Origin: Nanobdellota archaeon
Lineage (GTDB): Archaea; Nanobdellota; Nanobdellia; Pacearchaeales; GW2011-AR1
NCBI GenBank assembly: GCA_022703705.1
Contig: JAKLDD010000002.1
Location: 4,597-68,596 of the forward strand
Length of the DNA stretch: 64,000 bases
Reading direction: 5' to 3'
Shown: positions 4,820-62,302 of the stretch, one piece after another
Layout of the letters: each line of letters starts with the position of its first letter
How positions within the stretch are numbered: position 1 is the first letter of the stretch
Position numbers and translations under genes: made by a program
Notes under the pieces: generated by a model
The model's input: the letters and a program-made list of their open reading frames with translations, nothing else
Databases searched by the model: none
Told to the model about the DNA's origin: nothing

Positions 4820-4842
4820 TTTTTTGTCCTCCAAAATTTAAT

Positions 4843-5271
4843 TTATTTTTTATTACCAAAGTAAATTTCAACTGAAAATTTATCGTACACTTCATAGAAA
4901 AGTTTAGACTCTATGCTGTGAGAGCACATGTGTTCTGCCTTAAACAGAAAACAATTAATTTTGTAATTTAACCCGACAGTATACTCTATTTGGAGAGGAT
5001 CATAAACATCAATCTTCTCGCATTGAAAGTAACTTTTAATCCCTGTATAAAGGGAGAATTTTTTATAATCTGCATTAAGATTAATCTTTGCAAATTCGCT
5101 CTTATTTAACAAGTTCGACTGGATTTCCATTCCTGTAGTTGTACCCTCATTAAGGCGAACTATTCTACTCTCATACCCTAACTCAAGAGAACCCCCTGTT
5201 TCTATCTGAGAAAAAACTAGGCAAATAGGGTAAAGAAGAAAAAGCAAAGAGAAGAAAATTAACTTTTTCAT
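4843..5271 (-). CDS. secreted beta-rich protein with Sec signal peptide (142 aa)
   Basis: MKKLIFFSLLFLLYPICLVFSQ signal. The mature part shows alternating hydrophobic/polar beta-strand periodicity (LELGYESRIV, FSLYTGIKSYF, EYTVGLNYKI, FSVEIYFG). Confidence 0.6.
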   Translation of the reverse strand: MKKLIFFSLLFLLYPICLVFSQIETGGSLELGYESRIVRLNEGTTTGMEIQSNLLNKSEFAKINLNADYKKFSLYTGIKSYFQCEKIDVYDPLQIEYTVGLNYKINCFLFKAEHMCSHSIESKLFYEVYDKFSVEIYFGNKK

Positions 5272-8030: not shown

Positions 8031-10016
8031 TTAATGTGCATGAACATTTTCTGTTAATCTAATAAATTTTTTCCAGCCTCTTGCATTCTTCTCTTCCTGT
8101 ATTCTAATTAAATCTTTATCCAATAATTTATTTTTTATTATGTTTCCTTTTCTTGTGGATAATTTCATTTTATTATATAGTTCGACTGTGCTATCTTCAT
8201 GAAGAGAATTTTCTATTAAATAAACAATAAAGTCCATTTCTTCTTTATCCAGGGTTTTAAGTATAGGATATTTTTCCATTTTATCTTTTTTTAGATTTAA
8301 CTCAAATTCTTCTTTATTTAATCTTAAATTTATTAAAGAGTTTATTGCTTCCAAAATATCCCTTGAAGTATAACATTTTTCAAATAGCCTTCTCTCAAGA
8401 AGTTCTTCTATTTCCCTTAAACTCCTTCCTTTTTGCAGTTGTTCAGATATAAAAGAACGCAAGATTTCTTGTGTTGGAGTTAAGGTTGATTCAAGTTTAA
8501 CCTCTTCTATTTTCTCTTGCGGTTCCAAGGTTTTTATCTCTAATTTAATTTCTGTAACGGGCACAACTTCTAAGCTTTTTGGATTTGATGGATTAATTAA
8601 AGCTTCTTTGAATTCCGGGTCGTCTTTTTCAACTTCAATACCCTGAACAATACATTCCATTCTCTTTGCAATTATTTTATCATCAATTATTTCATTTCTT
8701 AATTCAGTAAATGGGACCTTTATTGAAAAAGGAAAAGTATACCTTTCTGAAAGTTTAACGACTGCAACCCCCACCGGAAGTTGGGTAAAGAGTTCTTTCT
8801 TTTCAGGAATTTGCATTATTGAACTAATATCATAAACATCTTGAGGTAATTGCTGCTGAAATGCTATATGGCATGCACTGTTTCCTTTTACTGTGTCGCT
8901 CAATTTGGATATATGTTGATCCAAACAGATTAATCCTGTACCATATTCTCTCATTTCTCTATAAACCATGTCTGTCACTGACTCGGATACAAAATAAGTT
9001 TTATTTTTCAAAAATATATTATGTGCTTCATCCACAATAATTGCGTGATTAAAACCTTCTGAGATTTTTAATTGATTTGCTTTTTTTAATTTATACAAAT
9101 AGGTAAGAATAAATTCACAGAAAAATTTCTTTTCAACATTTCCTAAGGAATTTAATTCAAGAATTACTTTTTTGTCGTATAAATCCTCAATTGAAAGACT
9201 TTTCTTACCATCATAATTAATTACTTTCCCAAAATCTCCAAATGTAAGCACTGTTGCTATTCTAAGAGCACTCTCATACCATGTTGCTTCTCTCCCCCTT
9301 GCTTCTCTTGCTTTTATTTCAAGCATTTTTTTTATATGTTGCCAATTAGGGTAATGAGGGGAACCCTTGTAAATGCCCCACCCTTCAAAAACTTCATCTA
9401 ATGTTTCCATTAAAACTTTATGAACTCCAAATGACACGCAAAAACTTTCTGTTAATAAATCGCATAGAACGTTAATCCATTCTCTTGGAGAAATTCCTTT
9501 TGGAGGACGATTGATGTTTGTCCTAAATAGGTTGCTTACTGAATCATTCCCTATTGTAAAACACATTACAGAAGAATCTGCTTTTAAAAGTGGACGGAAA
9601 CTTTTTTTCCAGTCAAATACTAAAAAAGGTTTGTCTTTTTCAACAAATCTTTGAAGAATATTTAAAGCAAGAGTAGTTTTTCCACTTCCACTCATCCCGC
9701 TTATACAAACATGTCTTGGCCAATCATTTTCTCTTAAACAAAAATTATGGAGCTCTTTTCCAGCATAGATCACTCTAGCCAAGTCGTATTCTCCAAGAAC
9801 AAATTTTTCTTCAGGAGGTTCTAACAACAGCTTTTTGTCTAAAAATTTTCCAAGATGTTTTTGATAAAGTGCCCCTAGAACACATAAAATCTGGTTTTTT
9901 TCTTCAAGCGAATCAGAAACAGTATATCTAAAATAAAGTTCATCTATTTTATTTCCTAAAATTGGCTTTAATCTTGAGCTTATTTCCTCTATTGAAAGGG
10001 TTTTTTGAATGGACAT
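8031..10016 (-). CDS. HerA/FtsK/VirB4-superfamily P-loop ATPase (DUF87/AAA_10-like) with C-terminal winged-helix domain (661 aa)
   Basis: Walker A VCISGMSGSGKTTLALN; FLVFDWKKSF; Walker B HAIIVDEAHNIF; GTGLICLDQHISKL. The C-terminal ~90 aa is wHTH-like (EMDFIVYLIEN..STVELYNKMKLSTRKGNIIKNKLLDKDLI). No TM segments. Confidence 0.7.
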   Translation of the reverse strand: MSIQKTLSIEEISSRLKPILGNKIDELYFRYTVSDSLEEKNQILCVLGALYQKHLGKFLDKKLLLEPPEEKFVLGEYDLARVIYAGKELHNFCLRENDWPRHVCISGMSGSGKTTLALNILQRFVEKDKPFLVFDWKKSFRPLLKADSSVMCFTIGNDSVSNLFRTNINRPPKGISPREWINVLCDLLTESFCVSFGVHKVLMETLDEVFEGWGIYKGSPHYPNWQHIKKMLEIKAREARGREATWYESALRIATVLTFGDFGKVINYDGKKSLSIEDLYDKKVILELNSLGNVEKKFFCEFILTYLYKLKKANQLKISEGFNHAIIVDEAHNIFLKNKTYFVSESVTDMVYREMREYGTGLICLDQHISKLSDTVKGNSACHIAFQQQLPQDVYDISSIMQIPEKKELFTQLPVGVAVVKLSERYTFPFSIKVPFTELRNEIIDDKIIAKRMECIVQGIEVEKDDPEFKEALINPSNPKSLEVVPVTEIKLEIKTLEPQEKIEEVKLESTLTPTQEILRSFISEQLQKGRSLREIEELLERRLFEKCYTSRDILEAINSLINLRLNKEEFELNLKKDKMEKYPILKTLDKEEMDFIVYLIENSLHEDSTVELYNKMKLSTRKGNIIKNKLLDKDLIRIQEEKNARGWKKFIRLTENVHAH

Positions 10017-12853: not shown

Positions 12854-13279
12854 TTAAAAATTATTTTTCTTTTCTAGTTTATCTAATTTATCTTGAACAT
12901 GATTAAAAAGAGTTGTTGAAATAATTGGGGGGTGTTTTCCTTCAGAAATTTGCCCATCAAACCTAACTTTACCAACATAAACAAAATTTCTTAAAATTTT
13001 TTTTAATCCATTAACTGAAAAATTATGCTTTTCTGCAATTTTAGACAAGTTCATTTCTGGATTCAAAAACTCTTCAAAAATTTCTTCTACTTCTCTGTAG
13101 TTTTGCGCTAAAATCAATGTTTTTTCTTTAAAATCCCATTCATATCCGAAAGGGGATCTCGACATATGTTTTCCTTCAGAAAATTTTTTTAGCATTCCCT
13201 TTTTTTGAGATTTTCCTCGATCTTCCAATTCAGGTTTTAATTCTATTTCAAATTCGTGTCCACATTTAGGGCATTTCAT
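12854..13279 (-). CDS. Zn-ribbon plus serine-recombinase 'Recombinase' (DNA-binding) domain protein, lacking the catalytic resolvase domain
   Basis: N-terminal CPKCGHEF. SPFGYEW..LILAQNYREVEEIFEEFLNPEMNLSKIAEKHNFSVNGLKKILRNFVYVGKV matches the PFGY..EA..V..IF..SL..IA..LN...I..IL.N..Y.G pattern of PF07508. ATGA overlap with the xerA stop. Confidence 0.65.
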   Translation of the reverse strand: MKCPKCGHEFEIELKPELEDRGKSQKKGMLKKFSEGKHMSRSPFGYEWDFKEKTLILAQNYREVEEIFEEFLNPEMNLSKIAEKHNFSVNGLKKILRNFVYVGKVRFDGQISEGKHPPIISTTLFNHVQDKLDKLEKKNNF

Positions 13280-14109
13280 TTCATTAATTCATCTATAGGG
13301 GATTTTATCTTCTTTAATTCTTCTGTTGATATATGAGTATAAATTTGTGTTGTTGAAAGATCTGCATGCCCAAGCAATTCTTGTATTTTTCTTATATCCG
13401 TCCCGTTTTCTAAAAGATGGGTGGCAAAACTATGCCTCAAAGTATGGCAATGAATTTCCTTGTTTATTCCTGCTCTTTTTGCTGCTTTTGAAACAATTTT
13501 TTGCAAATTTCTCTCTGAAAGTTTTCCTTTTATTCCAGTAAATAAATATATTTCTTTTTTTTCTTTCTGCTTTTCTACTTGTTTTTTTAAATCTTCTAAT
13601 AAAAAATCTGGAATGTTAAAAATTCTATCTTTTTTTCCTTTTCCTTGAAGAATTTTTCCTGTTTTTTCATTAAAGTCCAAGTCCCCAATTTTTAAATTGA
13701 TTAATTCGGATACCCTAAACCCACAGGCATACATTAAAGAAACCATAATTTTTGATTTTTTCGTGTCCAATACTTCAAATAATTTTTTTGCTTCTTCTTT
13801 TGTTAAAACCGTGGGCAATCTCTTTTCTCTTTTTGGACGTTTAATTCCCAGGGTAATGTCTTTTTTTAATATACCTAAAAAAGAATATTTTAAAGCTGAA
13901 AGAAAAATAATTATGGATGAGGAAGCTTTATCAGAAAGATTCTCTGAAATATATAATTTTACATCATCTGATTCTATTTTCTCTGGATTTTTTTTTATAA
14001 ATTCAAGAAATTTTTTATTTGAATCCAAATAATTTCTCAGTGTATATAATGAATTTTTTGAAATTTTCAGTTCAACCTCTAATTTTTTTAAAAAATCTTC
14101 TGGAGTCAT
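13276..14109 (-). CDS. xerA: tyrosine recombinase XerA/XerC/XerD family
   Basis: 277 aa. ACGFRVSEL (Arg I), HTLRHSFATHLL (H-x-x-R), LGHADLSTTQIYTH (catalytic Tyr), N-terminal SAM-like core-binding domain. Confidence 0.9.
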   Translation of the reverse strand: MTPEDFLKKLEVELKISKNSLYTLRNYLDSNKKFLEFIKKNPEKIESDDVKLYISENLSDKASSSIIIFLSALKYSFLGILKKDITLGIKRPKREKRLPTVLTKEEAKKLFEVLDTKKSKIMVSLMYACGFRVSELINLKIGDLDFNEKTGKILQGKGKKDRIFNIPDFLLEDLKKQVEKQKEKKEIYLFTGIKGKLSERNLQKIVSKAAKRAGINKEIHCHTLRHSFATHLLENGTDIRKIQELLGHADLSTTQIYTHISTEELKKIKSPIDELMK

Positions 14110-14124
14110 TTTTATCTTAAAAGA

Positions 14125-14135
14125 ATTGTACGAAC
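14125..14135 (-). promoter_or_regulatory. Xer half-site (GTTCGTACAAT) between the xerA TATA-like box and start codon
   Basis: The 11-mer is identical to 17685-17695 and nearly identical to both arms of the dif-like site. A TATA-like tatttaaa (minus strand, 14139-14146) lies upstream, and the ATG is at 14109. Confidence 0.55.
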
Positions 14136-14156
14136 TTCTTTAAATAGTTTTAGACT

Positions 14157-14383: not shown

Positions 14384-14911
14384 ATGAGAGACTCAAATAA
14401 AAAAATTCTTGTAATTGCTTTAGCTTTACTCTTTATAGCAATTGTTTTAATTTTACTCATTTCAAGTTTAGTCAAACAAAAAGAGAAAGAGGAGAGAGTT
14501 GGGGTGCCAACATCTTTTGCTGTTTCAGAAAATCAAGATTATTCTAGCCACATTCAAGGAAAGAATTATTACTATTATGATTATAATCATCGGCATGAGA
14601 TAAATTATTATAACCTTGATCAACAAAAAACTGAAAAAAGAACTGATTTTTCTTATTATGGGAGAAAAGAACAACAAAAAGACATTTTTGGGAGTTATAT
14701 TACTAAGTATGTTGTTTCTGTCCAAAACAAGGAAAATGTTGGAGATTATTTTACAGTTACATTTAATTTTAAAAATCAAAGGGGATTTGAATATTCTGAA
14801 GCAGTAACTCAGTATTTAAAAGCAGGAGAGAAAAAAGAATTTGTTTATAAAGATGTTCAATTTGAAAGGACAGAAATCTTAAGCTGGAGCTATAGAGTTA
14901 AACAGGTATAA
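14384..14911 (+). CDS. N-terminally anchored extracellular protein (175 aa)
   Basis: Signal-anchor ILVIALALLFIAIVLILLISSL, a Tyr/Asn-rich segment, and a beta-rich C-terminus. Confidence 0.6.
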   Translation: MRDSNKKILVIALALLFIAIVLILLISSLVKQKEKEERVGVPTSFAVSENQDYSSHIQGKNYYYYDYNHRHEINYYNLDQQKTEKRTDFSYYGRKEQQKDIFGSYITKYVVSVQNKENVGDYFTVTFNFKNQRGFEYSEAVTQYLKAGEKKEFVYKDVQFERTEILSWSYRVKQV

Positions 14912-14927: not shown

Positions 14928-14955
14928 GGTTCGTATAATGTATATTGTACGAAGC
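14928..14955. other. dif: dif-like Xer recombination site GGTTCGTATAA-TGTATA-TTGTACGAAGC
   Basis: 11-6-11 architecture with near-palindromic arms. It shares 20/28 identity with E. coli dif (GGTGCGCATAATGTATATTATGTTAAAT, from memory), including the identical TGTATA spacer and 17 of the first 19 nt. Located 0.8 kb from xerA. Confidence 0.75.
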
Positions 14956-14965
14956 TTTACCTATT

Positions 14966-15460
14966 TTAGAAGGATTTTGGAGGTTTTGATAGTATTTCCT
15001 TAGTAATCTTAACAATTTGTTTTAATATTTTCGGATTTGTGGCCTTTTTTAAAAACTGTTCATCTTCTGTTGAAAATTGTCTTGCACTTAGGTTAGCTTT
15101 GTTATTTTTTGTTTGATATTCTTTGAAAGCCGGTGAATCTTTATGAACTAAAAGATACTCAAAAACATCCCCGAGGTTTTTCTGGTAGTCTTTAAACTGT
15201 TCTTCACTAATAAGAGCATATTCATGAAATTCATTTAAAGAGAGATTTCCATGTCTTTTTAAAAGAGGGAACCATACAGAAAGTTTCCCATCTTCTACAT
15301 AGTGAATTCCTAATGAATTTTCTTCAGGAATCTGAAATAATAAATGTGGGGCCATCATGTTTTGAAAATACTTTCCCTTGAAATTTTCAATTAATAAATC
15401 ATAAAGAGTGTGCTCATACGGGATTAGTTTTGGTTCTAAACCTTTTTTCATTTTATTCAT
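14966..15460 (-). CDS. hypothetical protein (164 aa)
   Basis: ORF with no recognised motif. Repeat R1 lies ~100 nt upstream. Confidence 0.55.
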   Translation of the reverse strand: MNKMKKGLEPKLIPYEHTLYDLLIENFKGKYFQNMMAPHLLFQIPEENSLGIHYVEDGKLSVWFPLLKRHGNLSLNEFHEYALISEEQFKDYQKNLGDVFEYLLVHKDSPAFKEYQTKNNKANLSARQFSTEDEQFLKKATNPKILKQIVKITKEILSKPPKSF

Positions 15461-15559: not shown

Positions 15560-15594
15560 TTCACCTGCCTTTTTGCACTTAGGTTAGGTAAGTT
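15560..15594. repeat. repeat R1 copy a (ttcacctgcc-ttttgcacttaggttaggtaagtt)
   Basis: The 24-nt core is identical to 16074-16097. It lies ~100 nt upstream of the start of gene 14966..15460. Confidence 0.8.
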
Positions 15595-16063: not shown

Positions 16064-16097
16064 TTCACCAGCATTTTGCACTTAGGTTAGGTAAGTT
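16064..16097. repeat. repeat R1 copy b
   Basis: ttcaccagca-ttttgcacttaggttaggtaagtt, at the same offset from the start of gene 15639..15959. Confidence 0.8.
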
Positions 16098-16470: not shown

Positions 16471-17103
16471 ATGTTTAGATGGTTTTCTAAAAAAAAGGAT
16501 AAAAAAGAGCTTGAAGATATAAAAGAAGAAACAAAAAAAGGTTTTGATTTTGTAAAAAAAGATATTGCAACAGTAAGTGGATGGATTAAACACCTAGATT
16601 CTGAAAAAAAAATACAAGAAAAAGATATATTATCCATTAAAGAAGATTTGACGACGGTTAAAGAAGAATTAGAAGGATTAAAAAATGTTTTATCTATTAT
16701 GAATGATCTTAAACCCAAACAGCTGTTTAAAACAAACAAACAGCTGTTTAATAAACAAACAGCTGTTTATGCTGTCCAAACAGGTGTCCAAACAGGTGTC
16801 CAAACACCAAATTTAGGACAATTTTCTGTAACAGAAAGAGCGATTCTATGGGTGTTATTAAACACAGATATGAAACTAGGTTATGATGATCTTTCTACTA
16901 TGCTAGGAAAAGAAAAGAGCACAATAAGAGGTCAAATAAACTCCATAAAAGCAAAAAGTGAGGGTATAATAGAGGAAATTATTGAGACAAATGGCAAAAA
17001 AAGAGTGTTTATACCTGAAGAAATTAAAGAAAAACTACTAAAAAAGTCAAAAGTAAGGGTTGGACAGTCAAAAAACACCAAAAAAGTCAAAAGTGAGGAT
17101 TAG
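16471..17103 (+). CDS. coiled-coil / low-complexity linker / C-terminal wHTH DNA-binding protein (210 aa)
   Basis: N-terminal KKGFDFVKKDI..coiled coil, linker KQLFKTNKQLFNKQTAVYAVQTGVQTGVQT, and wHTH SVTERAILWVLLNTDMKLGYDDLSTMLGKEKSTIRGQINSIK. Paralog of 17328..18032. Confidence 0.65.
   Translation: MFRWFSKKKDKKELEDIKEETKKGFDFVKKDIATVSGWIKHLDSEKKIQEKDILSIKEDLTTVKEELEGLKNVLSIMNDLKPKQLFKTNKQLFNKQTAVYAVQTGVQTGVQTPNLGQFSVTERAILWVLLNTDMKLGYDDLSTMLGKEKSTIRGQINSIKAKSEGIIEEIIETNGKKRVFIPEEIKEKLLKKSKVRVGQSKNTKKVKSED
16717..16806. repeat. three more perfect AAACAGCTGTTT palindromes plus AAACAGGTGTCC x2, inside the CDS
   Basis: Perfect copies at 16717-16728, 16738-16749 and 16757-16768; ccaaacaggtgt x2 at 16776-16800. 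Confidence 0.8.
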
Positions 17104-17166
17104 TAACCCTTAAAATATTAAAAAAATAAGAAAAAATTAGATAAAAAAGTCAAAAGTGAGAGTTAA
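17041..17166. repeat. three copies of aaaaagtcaaaagt[ag]ag[ga]g spanning the CDS 3' end and downstream
   Basis: Copies start at 17041, 17081 and 17144. The second contains the stop codon, and the third repeats the C-terminal coding module after the stop. Confidence 0.7.
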
Positions 17167-17210
17167 TAGATTCAAAAAATAAGAAAATAAAAAGAAAAAA
17201 TCGGGGGGAA

Positions 17211-17246
17211 AGAAAAAAGGGAGATAAAAGAAAAAAGGGAGATAAA
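17211..17246. repeat. 18-bp tandem duplication (gaaaaaagggagataaaa x2) in a ~220-bp almost pure-purine tract
   Basis: Read directly. The tract 17104-17327 is A/G on the plus strand and T/C on the minus strand. Confidence 0.75.
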
Positions 17247-17327
17247 AGAAAAAAATAAAGAGAAAAAAACACATAAGAAACCCAAAAGGGAGGGAAAAAA
17301 GTTATTCGGTAAGCAAGATAACTATAA

Positions 17328-18032
17328 TTAAAGCTCCCTTAACTGTAAAATTGTGCTTAAAGAAGCAATTTTCTTAAAGTTTGATGAAATAATCAATTGA
17401 ATATTTTTATTATTGATTTTAATTTTCTCGACGGGAATTCCTTTTTTAATTAACCTTCCAACATAATCCCTAATAGAGCTTTCAGTTAATTTTAGCTTTT
17501 GAGATAAATTCCTATAATCTGCATATCCTTCTTCTTCACAAGATTGATACAGTGCAGAAAAAACAGTCATTTCTTGATCTGTAAGTCGTTTAAATTTTAA
17601 ACGTATCTCTTTTTTTAGATTATCGAGAGAATCTAAAATTTTTACAGCATCTATTATGGGGCTTTCTTTTTCTTTATTATTGGTATTGTACGAACCTTTA
17701 TCTGTCTGTTGGTTTGTCTGTTGGTTTGTCTGTTTGTCTGTTGGAACCCCTACATTTCCAGTGGAAATACCTAAATTTTCATCCCTAAGGAGCCCAAAAT
17801 GTGTTGGATGTGTTGGAATTTGTGGTGAGGATGTTGAATTTTCTGATTTATGTGTTGGATCTTCTTTAAAATTTTCTTCTTTCTGCTTTATTGAAATTTT
17901 CTTTATTAATTCACATAATTCAATTAAACTTTGCCTATTTTCTTTTAATCCTTCTTTTAAAGAATCAACCTCTTTTCTCAAAATATCCATATCTTGTTTT
18001 ACCTTTGAAAATGCCTCTTTTATTTGTTCCAT
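17328..18032 (-). CDS. coiled-coil / low-complexity linker / C-terminal wHTH DNA-binding protein (234 aa), paralog of 16471..17103
   Basis: IKEAFSKVKQDMDILRKEVDSLKEGLKEN aligns with KKGFDFVKKDI..VKEELEGLKN. wHTH LTDQEMTVFSALYQSCEEEGYADYRNLSQKLKLTESSIRDYVGRLIKKG. The linker carries PTHPTH and TDKQTNQQTNQQTD repeats. Confidence 0.65.
   Translation of the reverse strand: MEQIKEAFSKVKQDMDILRKEVDSLKEGLKENRQSLIELCELIKKISIKQKEENFKEDPTHKSENSTSSPQIPTHPTHFGLLRDENLGISTGNVGVPTDKQTNQQTNQQTDKGSYNTNNKEKESPIIDAVKILDSLDNLKKEIRLKFKRLTDQEMTVFSALYQSCEEEGYADYRNLSQKLKLTESSIRDYVGRLIKKGIPVEKIKINNKNIQLIISSNFKKIASLSTILQLREL
17685..17695 (-). other. isolated Xer half-site GTTCGTACAAT inside the CDS linker
   Basis: 11-mer identical to 14125-14135, in the same orientation as the right arm of the dif-like site. 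The flanking would-be left arm is degenerate (5/11). Confidence 0.5.
17704..17744. repeat. tandem gtctgttggttt repeats (minus strand AAACCAACAGAC), related to the AAACAG half-iteron
   Basis: Two 12-mers plus two shorter units, encoding the QTNQQTNQQTD linker. Confidence 0.7.
17800..17819. repeat. repeat R2 second locus (exact 20-mer)
   Basis: tgtgttggatgtgttggaat is identical to 16130-16149 and encodes PTHPTH on the minus strand. Confidence 0.8.
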
Positions 18033-18096
18033 CTTTTTTTAAATAATATCTCCTATAAAAAGATTGAGATATTTTAAAATAATATTTGAGAAATAT

Positions 18097-18372
18097 TCAG
18101 TTTAAGCTTTGCCTGTTTTTGTACACCTTATAAACTTCATCTGAAAGCCTCCATCGACTTCTTTTAAGGTAGTCTACTCCCTTGGAATTCTTTTTTATTT
18201 CAACAACCAACTTTTCCTTTTTTAGTATTAATAATAAATTTTTTATAAATTCTTCATCTCGAGCGATTTCTTTTGCAATATTTGATGTAAAAACCGATTT
18301 TGGGTTAACAGAATAGAGGTAAGCAAGAATTTGTTCAGAGATTTTCTCTTTTTTTTCTTTTGAAATAAACAT
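18097..18372 (-). CDS. small winged-helix DNA-binding protein (91 aa)
   Basis: ISEQILAYLYSVNPKSVFTSNIAKEIARDEEFIKNLLLILKKEKLVVE has a wHTH pattern. Confidence 0.6.
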   Translation of the reverse strand: MFISKEKKEKISEQILAYLYSVNPKSVFTSNIAKEIARDEEFIKNLLLILKKEKLVVEIKKNSKGVDYLKRSRWRLSDEVYKVYKNRQSLN

Positions 18373-18502
18373 AATTAGATTAAGAAGAAAGTTCTTTTAA
18401 AGTTAATTATCTATTATGTTTTAAAATTACTTCTTAAATTCTAAAAATTATTTGTTTAGTTTTAAAAAAATGTAATTTAAAAAAGCTTCTTTAGGTACTT
18501 CT

Positions 18503-18916
18503 TTAATTTTTTTCTTGAGATTTTATAGAAGGAAGGGGGATATGCAATGGAAGATTAAATTCTTCTTCAAAAGGAATTGCTTTTAGACTTGCCTTTTTTA
18601 AGATTATGTTGAAAATATTTAATTTAAATTCTTCCGGCATTTTTTTATCTTGCCATTGTCTTAAAACTTCTTTAGCTTCTTTAGATTCTACTGAAACAAG
18701 CATATTTCCAGTAAAGTCTAATTTAGCTATTTTTTCCTCATAAGAAATATTGTAATTGAATTTAACTGCAATTAAATCTCCATTTAACTTTAAAAAATCA
18801 GATTTTACTGTTTTTATATCAGAAATATCTACTCCTGTATTAATTTTTAAGTCTTTTAGATTATCTGAAAGCTTTTCTACATTTATTTTTGTAAAATTGA
18901 AACTAACTAACTTCAT
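18503..18916 (-). CDS. hypothetical protein (137 aa)
   Basis: Clean ORF with no confident motif. Confidence 0.55.
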   Translation of the reverse strand: MKLVSFNFTKINVEKLSDNLKDLKINTGVDISDIKTVKSDFLKLNGDLIAVKFNYNISYEEKIAKLDFTGNMLVSVESKEAKEVLRQWQDKKMPEEFKLNIFNIILKKASLKAIPFEEEFNLPLHIPLPSIKSQEKN

Positions 18917-18969: not shown

Positions 18970-19230
18970 TTAAATTAAATCTTCTTCAGAAACAATAACA
19001 AAATCACCTATAGCAATAATTGAACTATACGGTACCAAAAATTCTCCAGAAGAGGTTTTTTCAAGATTTAAATTTCTAGAATAAGGTGTGGGATCTTTTA
19101 AAACAACTCCAATTAACTCTCCGGATTTTGTTTCAAAAGTAATATCTTTAACATAACCTAATCTTTTTCCTTCTTTTGTTACTACCATTTTTCCAATAAT
19201 AACATTAAAGGGAGTCTTTTCTATTTGCAT
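18970..19230 (-). CDS. PRC-barrel domain protein (86 aa)
   Basis: Start at the internal Met MQIEKTPFNVIIGKMVVTKEGKRLGYVKDITFETKSGELIGVVL..IIAIGDFVIVSEEDL. The track N-terminal extension runs into the origin AT tract. Confidence 0.65.
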   Translation of the reverse strand: MQIEKTPFNVIIGKMVVTKEGKRLGYVKDITFETKSGELIGVVLKDPTPYSRNLNLEKTSSGEFLVPYSSIIAIGDFVIVSEEDLI

Positions 19231-19316
19231 ATTGAAAATAAAAGTAATCAATTTATAAACTTTTCTGTAAAAATATATAGAGATTTGAATGTATAAAACA
19301 ATCAAAATTTAAATCC

Positions 19317-19341
19317 CACACCCTTTTGTTTCTTATGGAAA
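19317..19341 (-). promoter_or_regulatory. ORB-like box 1 (inverted): TTCCATAAGAAACAAAAGGGTGTG
   Basis: Dyad TTCCAnnnGAAAC plus a G/T-rich tail, comparable to archaeal ORB/mini-ORB elements (TTCCAGTGGAAAC type). Confidence 0.6.
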
Positions 19342-19394
19342 TATTTATAAATCAAAATGAAAAATTTTATTTTATTTATTTATTTATAAAAATT

Positions 19395-19426
19395 TATATT
19401 ATATATTATATATTATATATTATATT
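19395..19426. repeat. (TATATTA)n heptamer repeat, ~4.5 copies
   Basis: tt doublets recur every 7 nt at 19399, 19406, 19413 and 19420. Confidence 0.8.
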
Positions 19427-19437
19427 TTACTATTTTT

Positions 19438-19461
19438 AATAATAATAATAATAATAATAAT
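19438..19461. repeat. (AAT)8 microsatellite
   Basis: Read directly from the sequence. Confidence 0.9.
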
Positions 19462-19667
19462 AAAAGAATTAAAAGAATCAAAAACACTATAAAAGTAATA
19501 TAACAATAACATAACAAGAAGACATAATTAATAACATTCTATCAAAAACATAAAAATTATAATAATTATAATAAAAGAAATAATTAAAATTTTGGTAATA
19601 AATTAAAAATAACAGCTAAAATCTCAAAAACTTAAAAATAGCACTTAAAATTCAAAAAAACTAATCA

Positions 19668-19690
19668 TTCCATTAGAAACGTAGGTGTTT
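19668..19690 (+). promoter_or_regulatory. ORB-like box 2: TTCCATTAGAAACGTAGGTGTTT
   Basis: Same dyad and G/T tail, in the opposite orientation to box 1 across the AT-rich region. Confidence 0.6.
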
Positions 19691-19764
19691 CTCTTAATTA
19701 GTGGTTATAATTCTTTATATAAGAAATACATTTTTTTCATCGATAATTTAATTAATTTTAAATT

Positions 19765-19788
19765 TTCCACAGGAAATAAACGTGTGAG
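19765..19788 (+). promoter_or_regulatory. ORB-like box 3: TTCCACAGGAAATAAACGTGTGAG
   Basis: Same dyad, 30 nt upstream of the cdc6 ATG. GAGGT SD-like element at 19806-19810. Confidence 0.55.
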
Positions 19789-19817
19789 ATAATGAAATTA
19801 AAACGCGAGGTTAAAAG

Positions 19818-21029
19818 ATGAAAATAGATATTGAAAAAATTTTTGATACTTTTGATAAAAATGGAATTTTTAAAAACAAATCTTTATTACAATCAAATTA
19901 TACTCCAAATGAAATTCCCCATAGAGAAGAAGAAATAAAGCAGATTGCTTCTATCTTGGCTCCAGTATTGAGGGGAGAAAAAACAAGTAATTTATTTCTT
20001 TACGGGAAAACAGGAACAGGAAAAACCCTTTCTGTCCAATTTGTTCAAGAAGAATTAAATAAGCGAGTAAAAAAAGATTCAAATTTTAAATTAAAAATAG
20101 AATATTTAAATTGTAAATTAAAAAAGGTGTCTGATACAGAATATAGAATTTTAGCAGAATTAATTAAAAAAATGGGGGGGGAAGTTCCTCAAACAGGGCT
20201 TCCAACTCAAGCAGTATATAACAAATTTATAGAAACAATTGATTCTGAAAGGCAAGTAATAGTACTTATTTTAGATGAAATTGATCAAACAGTAAGGAAA
20301 ATTTCAAGCGATTTTTTGTATAATTTAATAAGATTAAATTCAGAACTTTCAAAATCCAAGCTTTGTATAGTTGGAATTAGCAATAATTTAACCTTTTTAG
20401 ATGAAATAGACCCCCGAGTAAGAAGTTCCCTTTCAGAAGAGGAAATTGTTTTTCACCCGTATGATGCTCTTCAATTGCAGGATATCTTAAATAAAAGGGC
20501 AAGAATGGCATTTAAAGAGGGAGTTATTCAGGAAGGGGTTGTTTCTAAATGTGCCGCATTTGCTGCAAGAGAGCACGGAGATGCAAGAAGAGCCCTAGAT
20601 TTACTTAGAATAGCTGGAGAGTTAGCAGAAAGAGACAATTCAGGTAAAATTTTAATAAAACATATAGATGAAGCAAATAATAAAATAGAAAAAGATAAGA
20701 TTTTAGATGTAATTCAATCAGAACCCAAACAATTTCAGTTAGTTTTAAAGGCAATTATTTATTTATCTGAAACTCAAAAAAACGAACCCATTTTTACAGG
20801 AGATGTTTATAATGTATATCAGGATTTTTGTTTAAGGCATAAACTAGAAGTATTAACCCAAAGGAGAGTGGGGGATATAATTCAAGAGTTTGATATGCAT
20901 GGAATAATTAATATAAAAGTTATTTCTAAGGGCCGGGGAGGGAGAATGAGAGAAATTAAATTAGCAATTCCAAAAGAGATTACAAAAAAAGCAAATGAAA
21001 TTGTTGAACACTCCTTAAATTATTTATAA
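19818..21029 (+). CDS. cdc6: Orc1/Cdc6 replication initiator
   Basis: IPHREEEIKQI.., Walker A YGKTGTGKT, Walker B LILDEID, sensor GISNN, GDARRALDLLR, and a C-terminal winged helix. Confidence 0.93.
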   Translation: MKIDIEKIFDTFDKNGIFKNKSLLQSNYTPNEIPHREEEIKQIASILAPVLRGEKTSNLFLYGKTGTGKTLSVQFVQEELNKRVKKDSNFKLKIEYLNCKLKKVSDTEYRILAELIKKMGGEVPQTGLPTQAVYNKFIETIDSERQVIVLILDEIDQTVRKISSDFLYNLIRLNSELSKSKLCIVGISNNLTFLDEIDPRVRSSLSEEEIVFHPYDALQLQDILNKRARMAFKEGVIQEGVVSKCAAFAAREHGDARRALDLLRIAGELAERDNSGKILIKHIDEANNKIEKDKILDVIQSEPKQFQLVLKAIIYLSETQKNEPIFTGDVYNVYQDFCLRHKLEVLTQRRVGDIIQEFDMHGIINIKVISKGRGGRMREIKLAIPKEITKKANEIVEHSLNYL

Positions 21030-21041
21030 TCTTTATTTAAA

Positions 21042-22664
21042 ATGGACACCAAAAAAATTTTGAAGTTTTGTTTAGAGAACGGATTATTGCTGGACAAAGA
21101 TGCTCTTGAATTATTTAGTGAAACTTGTAATACAGAATCCGTAAAACTAATCATTGAAAAAATAAAATCTTCAACAAAGCAAAAAATTATAACAAAAAAT
21201 ATTTTTTATGAAAATAAAGGGGAAATAATCAAATTTTTTTCAGATTTGCCAAAAGAAACCCAAAAAGAATTAGAAAGTTTAAAAATAAATCTGGGGCTAA
21301 GCATTGAAATTTCAAAGGAAAAAATCTCTTTAAATGAAAAAAAGCAAAATTACTCAGAGACAAAAAGCGATATAAAAATTCTTTCTCCTTTTCCCCCTGT
21401 TTCTTCTCAGGGGCATAAAATAGATGTGCAAGATTTTGTTAAATTTTTTAGAAATCGTTTTTTTGAAATGAAAAAAATTCTTCAGGGGCATTCTGAATTG
21501 GATAATCTCGTTTCTATAAATAAAATATTTGGAAATAGGCACGGAATTTCTATTATAGGGATGATTTGTAGTAAAAGTATTACAAAAAATAAAAATATGA
21601 TTTTTGAAGTTGAAGATTTTACCGGTAAAATAAAAATAATTGTGAGCAAAGAAAAGAAAGAATTGTATGAAAAGGCAGAAGAAATTTGTTTAGATTCTGT
21701 TTTGGGTTTTAAGGGTGCTGGAAATGGGGAGATTTTTTTTGCAAATGATATAATTTTTCCTGATGCAAACCTTGCAGAAAAGAAAAAGTCCCCGGAAGAA
21801 GAATATGCTTTATTTTTAGGGGATTTACATCTTGGAAGCAAGAGATTTTTCAAGCAGAGCTTTCTAAAATTTATAGATTATTTAAATGGCAATTTTCCAA
21901 ACACCCCCGAAGTTTACAAAATAAAGTACCTTTTTATAGTGGGCGATTTAGTTACTGGAATTGGAAATTATCCGAATCAAGAAGAAGATTTAGAGGTTGT
22001 AAATTTGGAAGAACAGTTTTCCTTGCTTGCCAATTTGCTTGGAAAAATAAGAAAAGATGTTAAAATAATTCTTTCGCCAGGAAATCACGATGGGGTACGA
22101 TTAATGGAACCGCAACCTCTTTTTGATGAAAAATATGCTTGGCCAATTTATAATCTGGAAAATGTAACAATAACTTCAAATCCTTGTTTTCTTAATTTTG
22201 GTTCTAAGGAAAATTTTGATGGGTTTAATGTCTTAACTTATCATGGATTTTCTTTTCAATACTATGCAAATTCTGTTCAAAAATTAATTCAAAAAAAAGC
22301 AATGAATTGTCCTGAAGAAATAATGAAATATGTTTTAAAACATAGGCATCTAGCCCCAACGCATGCCTCAACACAATACTTTCCTACTGAGGAAGATAAT
22401 TTATTAATAAAAGAAGTTCCAGATATTTTTGTATCTGCACACACTCACAAAAGCGGAGTTTCTGTTTATAATAATATTTTAATTATTTCAACTTCTTGCT
22501 GGGAAGCAATGACTCCTTACCAAGAAAAATTTGGAAATGAACCAGATCATTGCAAGGTTCCTATGCTTAATTTAAAAACTCGCGCTATCAAAATCTTAGA
22601 TTTTGAAGAAAATGAAAGAGGAGTAGATAAAAATTTGGAGATAAATTTAAATGAAAATAAATGA
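21042..22664 (+). CDS. DNA polymerase II (PolD) small subunit DP1
   Basis: OB-fold plus calcineurin-like phosphoesterase motifs: LFLGDLHLGS, FIVGDLV, SPGNHD, SAHTH. Confidence 0.9.
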   Translation: MDTKKILKFCLENGLLLDKDALELFSETCNTESVKLIIEKIKSSTKQKIITKNIFYENKGEIIKFFSDLPKETQKELESLKINLGLSIEISKEKISLNEKKQNYSETKSDIKILSPFPPVSSQGHKIDVQDFVKFFRNRFFEMKKILQGHSELDNLVSINKIFGNRHGISIIGMICSKSITKNKNMIFEVEDFTGKIKIIVSKEKKELYEKAEEICLDSVLGFKGAGNGEIFFANDIIFPDANLAEKKKSPEEEYALFLGDLHLGSKRFFKQSFLKFIDYLNGNFPNTPEVYKIKYLFIVGDLVTGIGNYPNQEEDLEVVNLEEQFSLLANLLGKIRKDVKIILSPGNHDGVRLMEPQPLFDEKYAWPIYNLENVTITSNPCFLNFGSKENFDGFNVLTYHGFSFQYYANSVQKLIQKKAMNCPEEIMKYVLKHRHLAPTHASTQYFPTEEDNLLIKEVPDIFVSAHTHKSGVSVYNNILIISTSCWEAMTPYQEKFGNEPDHCKVPMLNLKTRAIKILDFEENERGVDKNLEINLNENK

Positions 22665-23620: not shown

Positions 23621-26600
23621 ATGAACACCCAAGAATATTTTGAAAATCTTAAGAAGGAAATCGATAAAATATATTTAATTGCAGAAAAAGCTAGAGCAAA
23701 AGGATATGACCCTGCAAATGAGGTGGAAATTCCCTTAGCAATGAGTATGGCAGAAAAGGTTGTTGGTTTAATTTCTACAATATATCCTCAAATGAAAAAT
23801 TCTGGAATTGCAGAAAGGATTCTTGAGCTTGAAAAAGAATATGGGAAATTGGATACAACAATTGTATTTAAGATTGCAGAAGAAGTTGCAAAACAAAAAT
23901 TTTGCAAATTTAAGGATCTTCTCGAATCAATGGATGCTGGAATAAGAGTTGGCTTTGCTTATGCTACCTTGGGGGTAGTTTCAAGCCCAATAGAAGGATT
24001 CACTGGATTAAAAATAAGAAAAACGAGAAACAATCAAGAATATATTGAAGCAAGTTTTTCAGGCCCAATTAGAAGTGCAGGAACAACTGCAAGTTGTATT
24101 GTTTTAATTTTAATTGACTATCTAAGGGAGATATTTGGATTTGCTAAATATGATCCCACAGAAGAAGAAATCAAAAGAATGTATTCTGAAATGGAACATT
24201 TTCATGAAAGGGTTGCAAATTTGCAGTATATGCCTACAGAAAAAGAGGCAAATTTTTTAGCAAAAAATCTTCCAATTCAAATTGCAGGAGATGCTTCTGA
24301 AAAAATTGAAGTTCCAAATTATAAAAATTTGGAAAGAGTGGATACAAATTATTTGAGGAGTGGTTTTTGTTTAATTATCGGGGAAGGGCTTGCCCAAAAA
24401 GCAGCAAAAGGATTTAGGTTGTTAAATATTTCAAAGAAAAATGGGATAAAATCAACGGGGTTTGATTTTTTAGAAGAATATATAAAAATTCATGAAAAAA
24501 GGGCAAAAGGAAAAAAAGATGAAACTCCTGTTTATATGAAAGATTTGGTTGCCGGAAGACCTGTTTTTGGGCATCCTGCAAAATCTGGGGGTTTTAGGTT
24601 TAGATATGGAAGAGGAAGGGTTTCAGGATTTAGTGCAACTTCTTTGCATCCTGCAACAATGGCTATAACTGACGACTTTATTGCAATTGGAACACAATTA
24701 AAACTTGAAAAACCAACTAAAGGTTGTGTAGCTACTGTTTGTGATTCAATAGAAGGACCGATAGTCAAATTGTTTAATGGGAGTGTAAAAAAGTTAAATT
24801 CTTTAGAAGAAGCTAAATTAATTTATCCAGATGTAGATGAAATTATTTATTTAGGAGACATTTTGTTTCCATTTAGTGATGTTTTAAACAGAAATGCGCA
24901 GCTTATAAAACCGGGGTATGTTGAAGAGTGGTGGAAATTGGATTTGATGGAAAAAAACAATCTGGAAAAAATAGATTGTTTTAATATTTCTCTAGACAAA
25001 GCAATTGAATTAAGTGAGAATTATTCTATTCCATTACACCCAAAATATATTTTTTATTGGACAGAATTATCTAAAGAATATTTCTTGGATTTAATTGATT
25101 GGTTAATTGTTTCAAAATATGACAAAAAAATAATTTTTCCATATAATAAAACTGAAAGAGAAAAATTTAAGCTGGGAAAACGTGCCTTGGAGTTGCTGGG
25201 CATAGAACATCAAGTAACTTTAGAAAATGTTGTTTTGAACGAAATTACCAGCAAGGCTCTTCTTCTTAATCTTGGTATTAATATTCCCCATGAAGAATTT
25301 TTATTTAAAGAGCTAATTTTTAAGGAAAAGTATTTGTTAGACAAAAATGTTTTAGAAATTATTAATTCTGTTTCTAATTTTAAAATAAAAGATAAGGCGG
25401 GAGAGTTTATTGGAGCTAGAATGGGCAGGCCAGAAAAAGCAAAATTAAGAAAATTAATTGGGGGTCCAAATGTTTTATTTCCTGTTGGAAAAGAGGGGGG
25501 AAGATTGAGGAGTTTTCAAGCAGCTTGTGGAGAAGGAGAAGTTTTTGGAAGCTTTCCTATTTATTATTGTGAAAAGTGCAACCAGGAAACAATCTATCCT
25601 ATTTGTGAATCTTGTGAAAATAAATGTAAAAAAATGTATTATTTTCCTGAATTAAAAGAAAAAGCATTTGTTAAAATAAAAGAGGGGATTGAGAAAGGAG
25701 GAGTTCCTTACATGAATAAGAGGATAAATATTCAGCATTATTTTGAAAGTGCAATAAAAAAATTAGGTTATTCTAAAGAGCAAATACCCCCATTAATTAA
25801 AGGAGTTAGAGGAACTTCTTCAGAAAATCATTCCATAGAAAATTTTGCAAAAGGGATGATAAGAGCAAAATATAATTTACAAGTAAATAAAGATGGAACA
25901 ATAAGATTTGATGCAACAGAACTTCCCATAACATCTTTTAAGCCAAAAGAAATTTTTGTGGGTGTTGAAAAATTGAGGGAATTGGGTTACGATAAAGATA
26001 TTTTTGGTAATGAATTAATAAATGAAGACCAAATCCTAGAGCTTTTACCCCATGATGTTTTGCTTCCAATTTCTTCAGACTCTCTTGATGAAAAAGCAGA
26101 TGATATCTTTTTTAAGGTTTCAAAATTTGTTGATGAAGAATTAGAAAAATTTTATGGATTAGGAAAGTTTTATGATTTAAAAGAAAAACAAGATTTGGTT
26201 GGGCAAATTGGGGTTTGCATGGCCCCCCATAATTGTGCAGGGGTAGTTTGTAGATTTATTGGATTCTCAAACACTCAAGGCCTTTTTGCAAGTCCGTATA
26301 TGCACGCAGCAATAAGGAGGGATTGTGATGGGGATGAAGCAGCAGTTATGTTGCTGGGTGATGTATTAATTAATTTTTCAAGAGAATTTTTACCAAGTCA
26401 CCGGGGGGGAACCCAAGATGCCCCGCTTGTTTTAAATGCAAAAATAGATGCTGGTGAAGTTGATGATCAAATTTTAGATTTTGAATTTTTAAACGAATAC
26501 CCTATTGAATTGTACAGGTTTTCAGAGGAAAAAAGGCATTCCTCAGAAGTAAAATTAAATACTGTAAAAGAAATTCTAAAAAAAGGGGAAGATCCTTTTA

Positions 26601-27073
26601 AAGGAGTTGGATTTACTCACTCTACTAACAATTTTAATGAGGGGGTTTTGTGTTCTTCATATAAAAGACTTTTAACTATGCAAGATAAAGTAGGGCATCA
26701 AATGGAATTAGTAGAAAAACTTCGTTCTGTTGACACTGCAGATACTGCACGCCTTATTATTGATAGACATTTTATCAGGGATATTAGAGGTAATCTTAGA
26801 AAATTTTCAATGCAAGAATTTAGGTGTGTTGCTTGTAATGAAATTGTAAGAAGGCCCCCTCTTGAAGGGGTTTGCCCGAAGTGTCGCGGAAAATTAATTT
26901 TTACAATTCATGAAGGGGGAATAAAAAAATATCTTGATTCGGCATTGGACTTGGCAAAAAAATATAATCTTTCTTCTTATTTGCAGCAAAATCTTGAACT
27001 TGTTAAAAGATACATAGATGCTGTTTTTGGTAAAGAATTGGAAAAGCAAAAAGCTTTAGCAGATTATTTTTAA
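23621..27073 (+). CDS. DNA polymerase II (PolD) large subunit DP2
   Basis: 1150 aa. Motifs GRPVFGHPAKSGGFRFRYGR, ARMGRPEKA, IRRDCDGDEAA, and Zn fingers CEKCN..CESC and CVACN..CPKC. Confidence 0.93.
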   Translation: MNTQEYFENLKKEIDKIYLIAEKARAKGYDPANEVEIPLAMSMAEKVVGLISTIYPQMKNSGIAERILELEKEYGKLDTTIVFKIAEEVAKQKFCKFKDLLESMDAGIRVGFAYATLGVVSSPIEGFTGLKIRKTRNNQEYIEASFSGPIRSAGTTASCIVLILIDYLREIFGFAKYDPTEEEIKRMYSEMEHFHERVANLQYMPTEKEANFLAKNLPIQIAGDASEKIEVPNYKNLERVDTNYLRSGFCLIIGEGLAQKAAKGFRLLNISKKNGIKSTGFDFLEEYIKIHEKRAKGKKDETPVYMKDLVAGRPVFGHPAKSGGFRFRYGRGRVSGFSATSLHPATMAITDDFIAIGTQLKLEKPTKGCVATVCDSIEGPIVKLFNGSVKKLNSLEEAKLIYPDVDEIIYLGDILFPFSDVLNRNAQLIKPGYVEEWWKLDLMEKNNLEKIDCFNISLDKAIELSENYSIPLHPKYIFYWTELSKEYFLDLIDWLIVSKYDKKIIFPYNKTEREKFKLGKRALELLGIEHQVTLENVVLNEITSKALLLNLGINIPHEEFLFKELIFKEKYLLDKNVLEIINSVSNFKIKDKAGEFIGARMGRPEKAKLRKLIGGPNVLFPVGKEGGRLRSFQAACGEGEVFGSFPIYYCEKCNQETIYPICESCENKCKKMYYFPELKEKAFVKIKEGIEKGGVPYMNKRINIQHYFESAIKKLGYSKEQIPPLIKGVRGTSSENHSIENFAKGMIRAKYNLQVNKDGTIRFDATELPITSFKPKEIFVGVEKLRELGYDKDIFGNELINEDQILELLPHDVLLPISSDSLDEKADDIFFKVSKFVDEELEKFYGLGKFYDLKEKQDLVGQIGVCMAPHNCAGVVCRFIGFSNTQGLFASPYMHAAIRRDCDGDEAAVMLLGDVLINFSREFLPSHRGGTQDAPLVLNAKIDAGEVDDQILDFEFLNEYPIELYRFSEEKRHSSEVKLNTVKEILKKGEDPFKGVGFTHSTNNFNEGVLCSSYKRLLTMQDKVGHQMELVEKLRSVDTADTARLIIDRHFIRDIRGNLRKFSMQEFRCVACNEIVRRPPLEGVCPKCRGKLIFTIHEGGIKKYLDSALDLAKKYNLSSYLQQNLELVKRYIDAVFGKELEKQKALADYF

Positions 27074-62209: not shown

Positions 62210-62302
62210 AGCCCCATAGTACAGTGGTCAAGTATACGGCCCTTTGGTGTTATTAAGTAATGGAGAAAGGCCGGGACCTCGGTTCGAATCCGAGTGGGGC
62301 TA
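62210..62302 (+). tRNA. tRNA-Gln (anticodon TTG at 62244-62246) with a 20-nt intron at the canonical 37/38 position (62248-62267)
   Basis: Hand-folded: acceptor AGCCCCA/TGGGGCT (A1-U72, typical of archaeal tRNA-Gln), D-arm GTAC AGTGGTCAA GTAT, anticodon stem CGGCC/GGCCG interrupted by tgttattaagtaatggagaa, T-arm CTCGG TTCGAAT CCGAG. Confidence 0.85.

Follow-up and report, generated by a model that had tools for sequence, protein, structure and literature searches.

A candidate dif site upstream of xerA and close to the predicted replication origin in Candidatus Pacearchaeota

We analysed a 64-kb stretch of a Candidatus Pacearchaeota chromosome (contig JAKLDD010000002.1; hereafter, the window) that carries a 28-bp dyad upstream of a gene encoding the tyrosine recombinase XerA. 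An initial annotation had proposed that the dyad is a dif-like Xer site and a likely substrate of the adjacent single XerA. This proposal is supported by the assignment of the recombinase to archaeal XerA at equivalog level and by the presence of the dyad in 48 related loci. Judged by comparison with characterised systems, XerA very probably binds the 28-mer, and the 28-mer is probably a functional dif, the cognate site of the adjacent XerA on this chromosome.

Results

The 28-bp dyad and its statistical weight

The 28-mer at 14928-14955 has the 11-6-11 layout originally described, with two 11-bp arms around a 6-bp centre. The arms, GGTTCGTATAA and GCTTCGTACAA (the right arm, reverse-complemented), are inverted repeats that agree at 9 of 11 positions. 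The setting had also been read correctly. The site lies within the 54 bp separating the stop codons of two convergent genes, 14384-14911(+) and 14966-15460(-), and is located upstream of xerA, 819 bp from the xerA start at 14109. It is unique within the window, even when up to 3 mismatches are allowed.

The reported match to E. coli dif was found to extend over 20 of 28 positions, with TGTATA matched in full and 17 identities among the first 19 nt; the E. coli string is given verbatim in 11 papers (e.g., PMC3025954). By itself, this resemblance is weak evidence, barely above chance. Although the site is the best match in the window, with 20 identical positions, 4 stretches match at 19, 7 at 18 and 26 at 17 positions. 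The similarity is statistically light because the AT-rich window (29% GC) yields a chance tail of near-equal matches. Arm complementarity of at least 9/11 in an 11-6-11 frame occurs at 50 positions in the window. Moreover, loxP, over its central 28 bp, resembles the site more closely (22/28) than E. coli dif does, and likeness to one model site is therefore generic for tyrosine-recombinase sites.

A different measure was obtained from a weight matrix built solely from the sites found in related genomes. The 28-mer scores 36.7 bits. No other position in the window scores above 8 bits, and 12 bits is the maximum in shuffled 20-kb loci. By this measure, the site is far beyond chance.

XerA is an archaeal-type recombinase

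The product of xerA is composed of a SAM-like and a Phage_integrase domain. It passes the cut-off of the archaeal XerA equivalog model of NCBIfam (NF040815, recomb_XerA_Arch; 241.9 bits, cut-off 220) and fails those of the XerC, XerD, XerS and integron-integrase models; for instance, the score against the XerS model is 95.5 bits, the cut-off being 267. The best PDB match is XerA of Pyrococcus abyssi (4A8E, 3.4e-42). XerA of Thermoplasma acidophilum (5HXY) is also matched, and XerH only weakly. The alignment to 4A8E spans the motifs RVSEL (catalytic Arg), HxLRH, LGH and QIYT (catalytic Tyr). According to both NF040815 and this alignment, the protein has the catalytic residues R-K-H-R-H/W-Y of a cognate XerA-family recombinase.

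An identical protein is on record from a Candidatus Pacearchaeota metagenome-assembled genome, and thousands of homologues with 60-90% identity are present in assemblies of DPANN archaea. xerA is a core gene in many Pacearchaeota and Woesearchaeota, where it shows a fixed synteny with the S9-L13-L18e operon. It is the single XerA-like gene of the window; a second, paralogous recombinase, as required by bacterial systems of the XerCD type, was not found there.

The dyad is conserved upstream of xerA

We compared 80 xerA-relative loci, one per species, each extending up to 10 kb on either side of the gene. Exactly one strong site (24-42 bits) is present in 48 of these 80 Pacearchaeota/Woesearchaeota loci, and it lies upstream of xerA in all 48. 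The dyad is thus conserved among genomes with a similar XerA, the criterion of Cortez et al., and the 48 relatives share the geometry of the window site, a 28-bp imperfect inverted repeat with 11-bp arms and a 6-bp spacer. A second full site was detected neither in the window nor in any of the 48 loci (~20 kb each). Of the 32 loci in which no site was found, 16 extend for less than 2.6 kb upstream of xerA, one (L044) extends for 3.5 kb, and 8 others carry distant homologues (at most 54% identity; one is from Clostridium). A weak 15.5-bit match is present in one of these 8, L069.

The surrounding gene order is conserved. The PolD-cdc6 genes are followed by a PRC-barrel gene, three small genes, the p210 gene, a variable gap and the xerA side, in which xerA, a 141-aa gene and, in some cases, a DUF4389 gene precede S9-L13-L18e. 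In 37 of the 39 loci spanning both p210 and xerA, the site is inside the gap between them, which measures 0.8-9.4 kb and has a gene content unrelated from one genome to another. The median distance from p210 to the site is 1.2 kb. In these 37 loci, the site and xerA are 47 bp to 8.4 kb apart (47-48 bp in 8 loci). They are separated by 9.6 kb in L014, which has no p210 match.

In an alignment of 49 distinct sites with 30-nt flanks, the information content rises steeply at the 28 bp and is zero outside. Seven columns (T3, C5, A8, A10, A11, T18 and T19) are invariant, and the mean column identity is 78%. The family consensus is AGTTCGYAYAA-N6-TTRTRCGAACY. The AA-N6-TT core is found in 49/49 sites, and the 6-bp centre is variable. 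Several sublineages carry a divergent sequence (GACGT, CACTACC) in the outer half of the arm nearer to xerA, and the distal arm is intact. The orientation of this asymmetry relative to xerA is constant.

In one sublineage (L009, L016, L019, L023, L027, L032, L033, L038, L040, L043, L045 and L077), extra conserved elements flank the 28-mer. ATTGTGCGA is located ~20 nt before it in L019, L032, L040 and L077, and ACGAACG is located ~20 nt after it in all 12 loci. These elements resemble extra arm fragments and may be accessory sites.

A predicted protein-binding dyad

Given its location between two convergent stop codons, the 28-mer could alternatively be a bidirectional terminator hairpin, for which a 10-bp stem is available, or a chance palindrome, as the match to E. 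coli dif by itself falls inside the chance tail. The comparative data effectively refute this alternative, which we regard as extremely improbable. In 47 distinct sites, 74.3% of the arm positions are able to pair, compared with 74.1 ± 0.8 in shuffles of the 3' letters, and measures of arm covariation are unremarkable. As RNA, the region does not fold better than shuffled sequences do (z = -1.45). In relatives, the 28-mer occurs not only between convergent genes but also between co-directional genes or directly upstream of xerA, as in the 8 loci in which it lies 47-48 bp before the xerA ATG. The gap between 36.7 bits and the 12 bits attained by shuffled loci likewise speaks against a chance palindrome.

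An intrinsic terminator or a structured RNA was accordingly rejected on the basis of the fold score, the shuffle-level pairing, the non-convergent contexts and the lack of Rfam matches; neither Rfam nor tRNA scans gave a match at or near the site. Since the arms do not covary, the fold is at shuffle level and many contexts are not convergent, the symmetry is better read as two protein half-sites than as a stem, and the 28-mer is predicted to be a protein-binding dyad.

An isolated half-site at the putative xerA promoter

Outside full sites, the 1.18 Mb of analysed loci contain 75 copies of the arm motif GTTCGYAYAA, and 55 of these 75 extra half-sites are on the xerA strand and at most 1.5 kb upstream of xerA. 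The half-site typically precedes an ATG by 8 nt; this ATG belongs either to xerA itself (19 loci) or to an inserted or first operon gene, such as one encoding a HAD hydrolase. In compact loci, the order is dif, ~20 nt, TTTATAAA, AA, GTTCGYACAAT, 7 nt and ATG. In the window, the half-site AGTTCGTACAAT similarly lies next to a TATA-like box, TATTTAAA (Table 1).

Archaeal repressors classically bind in the interval that separates the TATA box from the start. As the half-site occupies this interval, we infer that xerA is autoregulated; XerA bound to the promoter half-site would probably repress its own transcription. In Saccharolobus (Sulfolobus) solfataricus, a partial dyad near dif (DYAD2) binds one Xer subunit (PMC3020120).

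The site is close to the predicted replication origin

The location at the chromosome terminus expected for a dif was not borne out. The site is instead ~4.4 kb from the predicted oriC, a position that is conserved in relatives (4-7 kb). The 19306-19817 region displays what is predicted to be a standard archaeal oriC signature, in which boxes resembling origin recognition boxes (ORBs) flank an AT-rich stretch containing (TATAT)n and (TAA)n. The boxes have the form TTCC-N4-5-GAAA-N4-GGTGT; one is inverted, and the other two are 97 nt apart. Pyrococcus ORB elements share their TTCC/GAA core (PMC1904270). Downstream of orc1/cdc6 are the genes for DP1 of the D-family DNA polymerase PolD (21042-22664), an HD protein and DP2 (23621-27073), in which DP2 domains were matched. 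The adjacency of cdc6 and DP1 recurs in the loci of 23 relatives, and ORB boxes are comparably placed in ~15 of the 21 relatives in which the gap between cdc6 and p111 was examined. Coding strands diverge at ~19.5 kb, with 65% minus to the left and 69% plus to the right. The GC skew of the window is dominated by gene strand and is loosely consistent with an origin near 10-20 kb.

The site does not appear to be at the terminus, since the ORB boxes, the AT-rich stretch, orc1/cdc6 and PolD all lie ~4.4 kb away. To our knowledge, no dif site so near an origin has been described before. Proximity to an origin is not disqualifying, because the Sulfolobus dif is also away from termination zones: the experimentally defined S. 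solfataricus dif is outside the fork-fusion zones and 0.26 Mb from oriC3.

Genes around the site

The coordinates of the main features are given in Table 1.

Table 1 Features of the dif-xerA-oriC region. Positions refer to the window.
Feature	Position	Strand	Remarks
141-aa stand-alone 'Recombinase' DNA-binding domain (RD) protein	12854..13279	-	Pfam PF07508, 3e-9
xerA, 277-aa tyrosine recombinase	13276..14109	-	Pfam Phage_integrase, 1.4e-47
Isolated half-site AGTTCGTACAAT, candidate XerA operator or accessory site	14125..14136	-	Ends 15 nt before the xerA ATG
TATA-like box TATTTAAA, putative xerA promoter	14139..14146	-	Directly upstream of the half-site; by analogy with TTTATAAA
Variable flanking gene, 175 aa, predicted membrane protein	14384..14911	+	Between site and xerA
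Putative dif-like XerA site, 11-6-11	14928..14955	none	GGTTCGTATAA-TGTATA-TTGTACGAAGC; whole, GGTTCGTATAATGTATATTGTACGAAGC
xerA-side arm GGTTCGTATAA	14928..14938	+	Outer positions degenerate in many relatives
Central 6 bp TGTATA, presumed crossover region	14939..14944	none	Cleavage presumed at the borders
oriC-side arm, GCTTCGTACAA as read on the minus strand	14945..14955	-	Better conserved arm, consensus AGTTCGYAYAA
Variable flanking gene, 164 aa, no family	14966..15460	-	oriC side of the site
p210, 210-aa coiled-coil/winged helix-turn-helix (wHTH) gene	16471..17103	+	Bounds the variable gap; present in 39 loci
Predicted replication origin	19306..19817	none	512-bp extremely AT-rich gap with ORB-like boxes
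ORB-like boxes	~19314-19339, ~19669-19694, ~19766-19791	-, +, +	Flank the AT-rich stretch
orc1/cdc6	19818..21029	+	Pfam Cdc6_lid 2.6e-26, Cdc6_C 1.1e-25

The start of the RD gene overlaps the xerA stop codon, and the gene is downstream of xerA in 52/80 loci. The RD proteins form a family of uniform length (~140 aa). The only match is to the 'Recombinase' domain of large serine recombinases; the protein features an N-terminal CxxC and does not carry the catalytic domain. The AlphaFold2 model has a mean pLDDT (predicted local distance difference test) of 80, and the best Foldseek match is the LI integrase-DNA complex (4KIS; E-value 2.8e-6, TM-score 0.61 by query length). A role as a DNA-binding accessory factor is plausible for the RD protein, but speculative.

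Synteny in 9 loci was also noted for the gene of a 661-aa HerA/FtsK-superfamily ATPase (DUF87), which lies at 8031-10016(-), 3.3 kb past xerA. On the other side, the PRC-barrel protein (18970-19305(-)) is directly beside the predicted oriC. A cluster of small-protein genes (16471-18916) encodes a 137-aa protein with no family, a 91-aa wHTH-like protein and two proteins of 234 and 210 aa with C-terminal wHTH-like regions; in 27-39 relatives, this conserved cluster lies between the predicted oriC and the gap with the dif-like site. The possibility that the 15-19.3 kb block, with its small wHTH proteins, is an integrated element was rejected in view of its core synteny in 27-39 loci. Between the site and p210, a 24-nt element, TTTTGCACTTAGGTTAGGTAAGTT, is found in exact form at 15571-15594 and 16074-16097 and with 83% identity at 15080-15103, at a spacing of ~500 bp. 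Tandem paralogous units of ~500 bp were rejected, as the units do not align beyond the 24-mer. Elsewhere, the element occurs only in the closest relative, L001, ~90 nt from the L001 site. At the far end of the window, a 93-nt tRNA (62210-62302(+); Rfam, 53 bits), to which ARAGORN assigns a 4-nt anticodon, 'tttg', probably contains an intron.

Variable flanks and viral sites

The genes next to the site are hypervariable on both sides among relatives. The 14384..14911 gene has no family match and is confined to the closest relatives (L001, L170 and L171), and nucleotide homology to these drops to background just past the site on the oriC side. The breakpoint is weak evidence for a recombination junction, as the sequence on that side is also non-conserved coding sequence. 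Such variability could indicate that mobile DNA uses the dyad for attachment or as a target, either as an attB for viruses or plasmids that hijack XerA in the manner of IMEX (integrative mobile elements exploiting Xer) or the att site of a xerA-carrying element. Dyads of the same type in IMG/VR contigs, including low-GC tailed-virus contigs, agree with this. We nevertheless consider an attachment site quite improbable as an explanation. xerA and the genes bordering the gap are core and syntenic, and the cargo looks cellular (HAD hydrolase, UppP-like protein, ZIP transporter and MsrAB). In neither the window nor the 48 loci is the cargo bracketed by a second full site. A direct-repeat att pair was not detected, as no second site exceeds 8 bits in the window, and the flanks from p210 to p111 are core and syntenic. 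Moreover, attachment, as with bacterial IMEX, would be a further function besides that of a dif, not a substitute for it. The variable flanks and the drop in homology are compatible with occasional XerA-mediated gene traffic.

The IMG/VR scan identified same-type dyads in 89 contigs, the GC content of which ranges from 0.30 to 0.64. Their arms follow the pattern TTCGYAYAA-N6-TTRTRCGAA and continue outwards into extended palindromic flanks. Three of the contigs, L082 (site at 2734), L116 (1403) and L162 (11056), come from low-GC tailed viruses, and in these the dyad adjoins terminase genes. No integrase was found in the stretch analysed of these three contigs, and the viruses may use the host Xer system.

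Discussion

A functional dif or another XerA-bound site

If the 28-mer is a dif, one XerA monomer would bind each 11-bp arm (consensus AGTTCGYAYAA), as expected by homology. Two sites on a chromosome dimer would synapse, the catalytic tyrosines would cleave at the borders of TGTATA, and strand exchange via a Holliday junction would convert the dimer into monomers, a process for which an FtsK-like partner would not be strictly required. The site and xerA form a linked module, 4-7 kb from the predicted oriC in this lineage.

Several observations weigh against a dif function. The origin-proximal position is opposite to the bacterial and Thermococcales pattern. The single copy of the site is established for 64 kb here and for ~20 kb in each relative. 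No site was found in 7 loci from fairly close relatives, each with 8 kb or more of sequence upstream of xerA; the linkage of site and xerA is therefore frequent, not universal. A metagenome scan for the exact core returned 3 contigs, two of which are syntenic; the third (L172) is indeterminate. In L172, a 5.9-kb groundwater contig, the 26-nt site core is present at 4840-4867, and no xerA is found in the 4.8 kb and 1.1 kb flanking it, which contain genes for MsrAB, a thermonuclease and membrane proteins. Either L172 represents an extended cargo stretch from this type of locus, or the site has a second context there. Sites of the same type also occur in other contexts in the IMG/VR contigs. Finally, data from other archaea call for caution. 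T. acidophilum has two XerA-binding sites, only one of which recombines, as dif1 binds XerA without recombining. In S. solfataricus, the dif defined by chromatin immunoprecipitation (ChIP) lies between SSO1161 and SSO1162, and xer is SSO0375; an in-silico study had placed the dif of Sulfolobales near xerA, at what may or may not be the ChIP-defined site.

On account of these two cases, the main rival to a dif is a regulatory or architectural site, in which the XerA-bound dyad serves as an operator for xerA or its neighbours, or as a chromosome-domain or SMC (structural maintenance of chromosomes) boundary, the functional dif being elsewhere. The binding of T. acidophilum dif1 and the distance, by locus tags, of the Sulfolobus dif from xer are in keeping with such a role, as are the overlap of euryarchaeal dif regions with SMC-dependent boundaries, the half-site that clearly overlaps the xerA promoter, and an origin-proximal location that is unusual for a resolution site. 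However, the complete 11-6-11 geometry has been kept and the AA-N6-TT core is invariant. In several genomes, the site is separated from xerA by up to 8.4 kb of unrelated genes, which is hard to reconcile with a xerA operator, and the promoter already has a half-site of its own. Finally, no second full site was seen, whether in the 64-kb window or in the 48 loci. We therefore view a purely regulatory or architectural role as unlikely, and a functional dif as the probable identity of the 28-mer.

A broader hypothesis, which we put forward tentatively and hold to be possible but doubtful, is that the Xer site, xerA, the promoter half-site and the RD-domain protein, a stand-alone domain derived from large serine recombinases, constitute a plasmid-like cassette fixed 4-7 kb from the origin. 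XerA-dependent processing of the chromosome in these small-genome archaea would then be centred on the origin, as opposed to the terminus, with the RD protein as a new accessory factor. The process in question would be dimer resolution or, alternatively, one of sister pairing, domain-boundary formation and SMC handling.

Implications for DPANN archaea

DPANN archaea are uncultivated, and we know of no dif described in them; a search of the literature on dif in DPANN returned nothing. The 28-mer provides a specific and cheaply testable candidate XerA substrate for this group, together with a family-wide consensus. Three features were unexpected: the conserved position next to the predicted origin, a half-site at the promoter and an RD-domain gene conserved as a neighbour. 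The data point to the RD protein as a candidate accessory protein. Should both the predicted origin and the recombination activity be borne out, the uncoupling of dimer resolution from termination seen in Sulfolobus would be extended to an extreme case, a resolution site next to oriC. The site may also serve as a landmark with which to orient and scaffold fragmentary DPANN assemblies.

Comparison with known Xer systems

The E. coli XerCD/dif system has the same 11-6-11 geometry and an identical TGTATA centre, and the XerC arm, GGTGCGCATAA, is resembled by both arms of the window site (9/11 and 7/11). In contrast to the system described here, E. coli uses two recombinases, activation by FtsK and a terminus location. 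XerS/difSL of streptococci and lactococci and XerH/difH of Helicobacter and Campylobacter rely, as here, on one recombinase with a site beside its gene. However, XerS and XerH belong to different recombinase families and are FtsK-dependent, and their sites are located at the terminus. Moreover, difSL is 31 bp long and has an 11-bp centre, compared with 6 bp here, and the pair in the window does not qualify as XerS/difSL.

In the Cre/loxP system of phage P1, the inner loxP arm, ACTTCGTATA, is almost the same as the arms of the window site, and a recombinase gene beside a site near a replication origin is also the arrangement of plasmid multimer-resolution cassettes, as on large plasmids. Yet loxP has a 13-8-13 layout, Cre is not the closest relative of this XerA, and the replicon is a chromosome.

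The closest counterparts are the XerA/dif systems of P. abyssi, Thermococcus kodakarensis, S. solfataricus and T. acidophilum, which share the single XerA-family tyrosine recombinase and the 28-bp 11-6-11 imperfect dyad with a conserved inner AA...TT. In P. abyssi and S. solfataricus, XerA alone, without partners, recombines the 28-bp dif in vitro, and P. abyssi XerA cleaves at the spacer borders (PMC3646895). S. solfataricus also has a nearby extra partial site, comparable to the half-site found here, and its dif is likewise not tied to the terminus. A TAA-N6-8-TTA core has been described as the feature that archaeal dif sites conserve best (PMC11840125). The window site features TAA-N6-TTG, and the TAA-N6-TTA form is found in 6/49 family sites, the family pattern being YAA-N6-TTR.

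Differences are also evident. The present lineage belongs to DPANN (Pacearchaeota/Woesearchaeota), and its XerA/dif system is a predicted one. In Thermococcales, the site is not linked to xerA, whereas here the two are linked at 47 bp to 8.4 kb, exceptionally 9.6 kb. The location 4-7 kb from the predicted oriC and the conserved downstream RD-domain gene further set this lineage apart from the characterised archaeal systems. Haloarchaea offer a parallel for the linkage, as dif-like dyads are found upstream of a xerA-containing operon in Haloferax volcanii and Halobacterium salinarum (PMC11840125). That placement is the same as the one observed here, although it was maps of SMC boundaries that led to the haloarchaeal elements; in euryarchaea, SMC-dependent boundaries and dif regions coincide (PMC11840125). 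According to a review, some archaea carry a xerA/dif module (PMC5357621). Given the in vitro work on XerA/dif, the modules noted in that review and the haloarchaeal upstream sites, other archaea already provide examples both of such an element and of its association with xerA.

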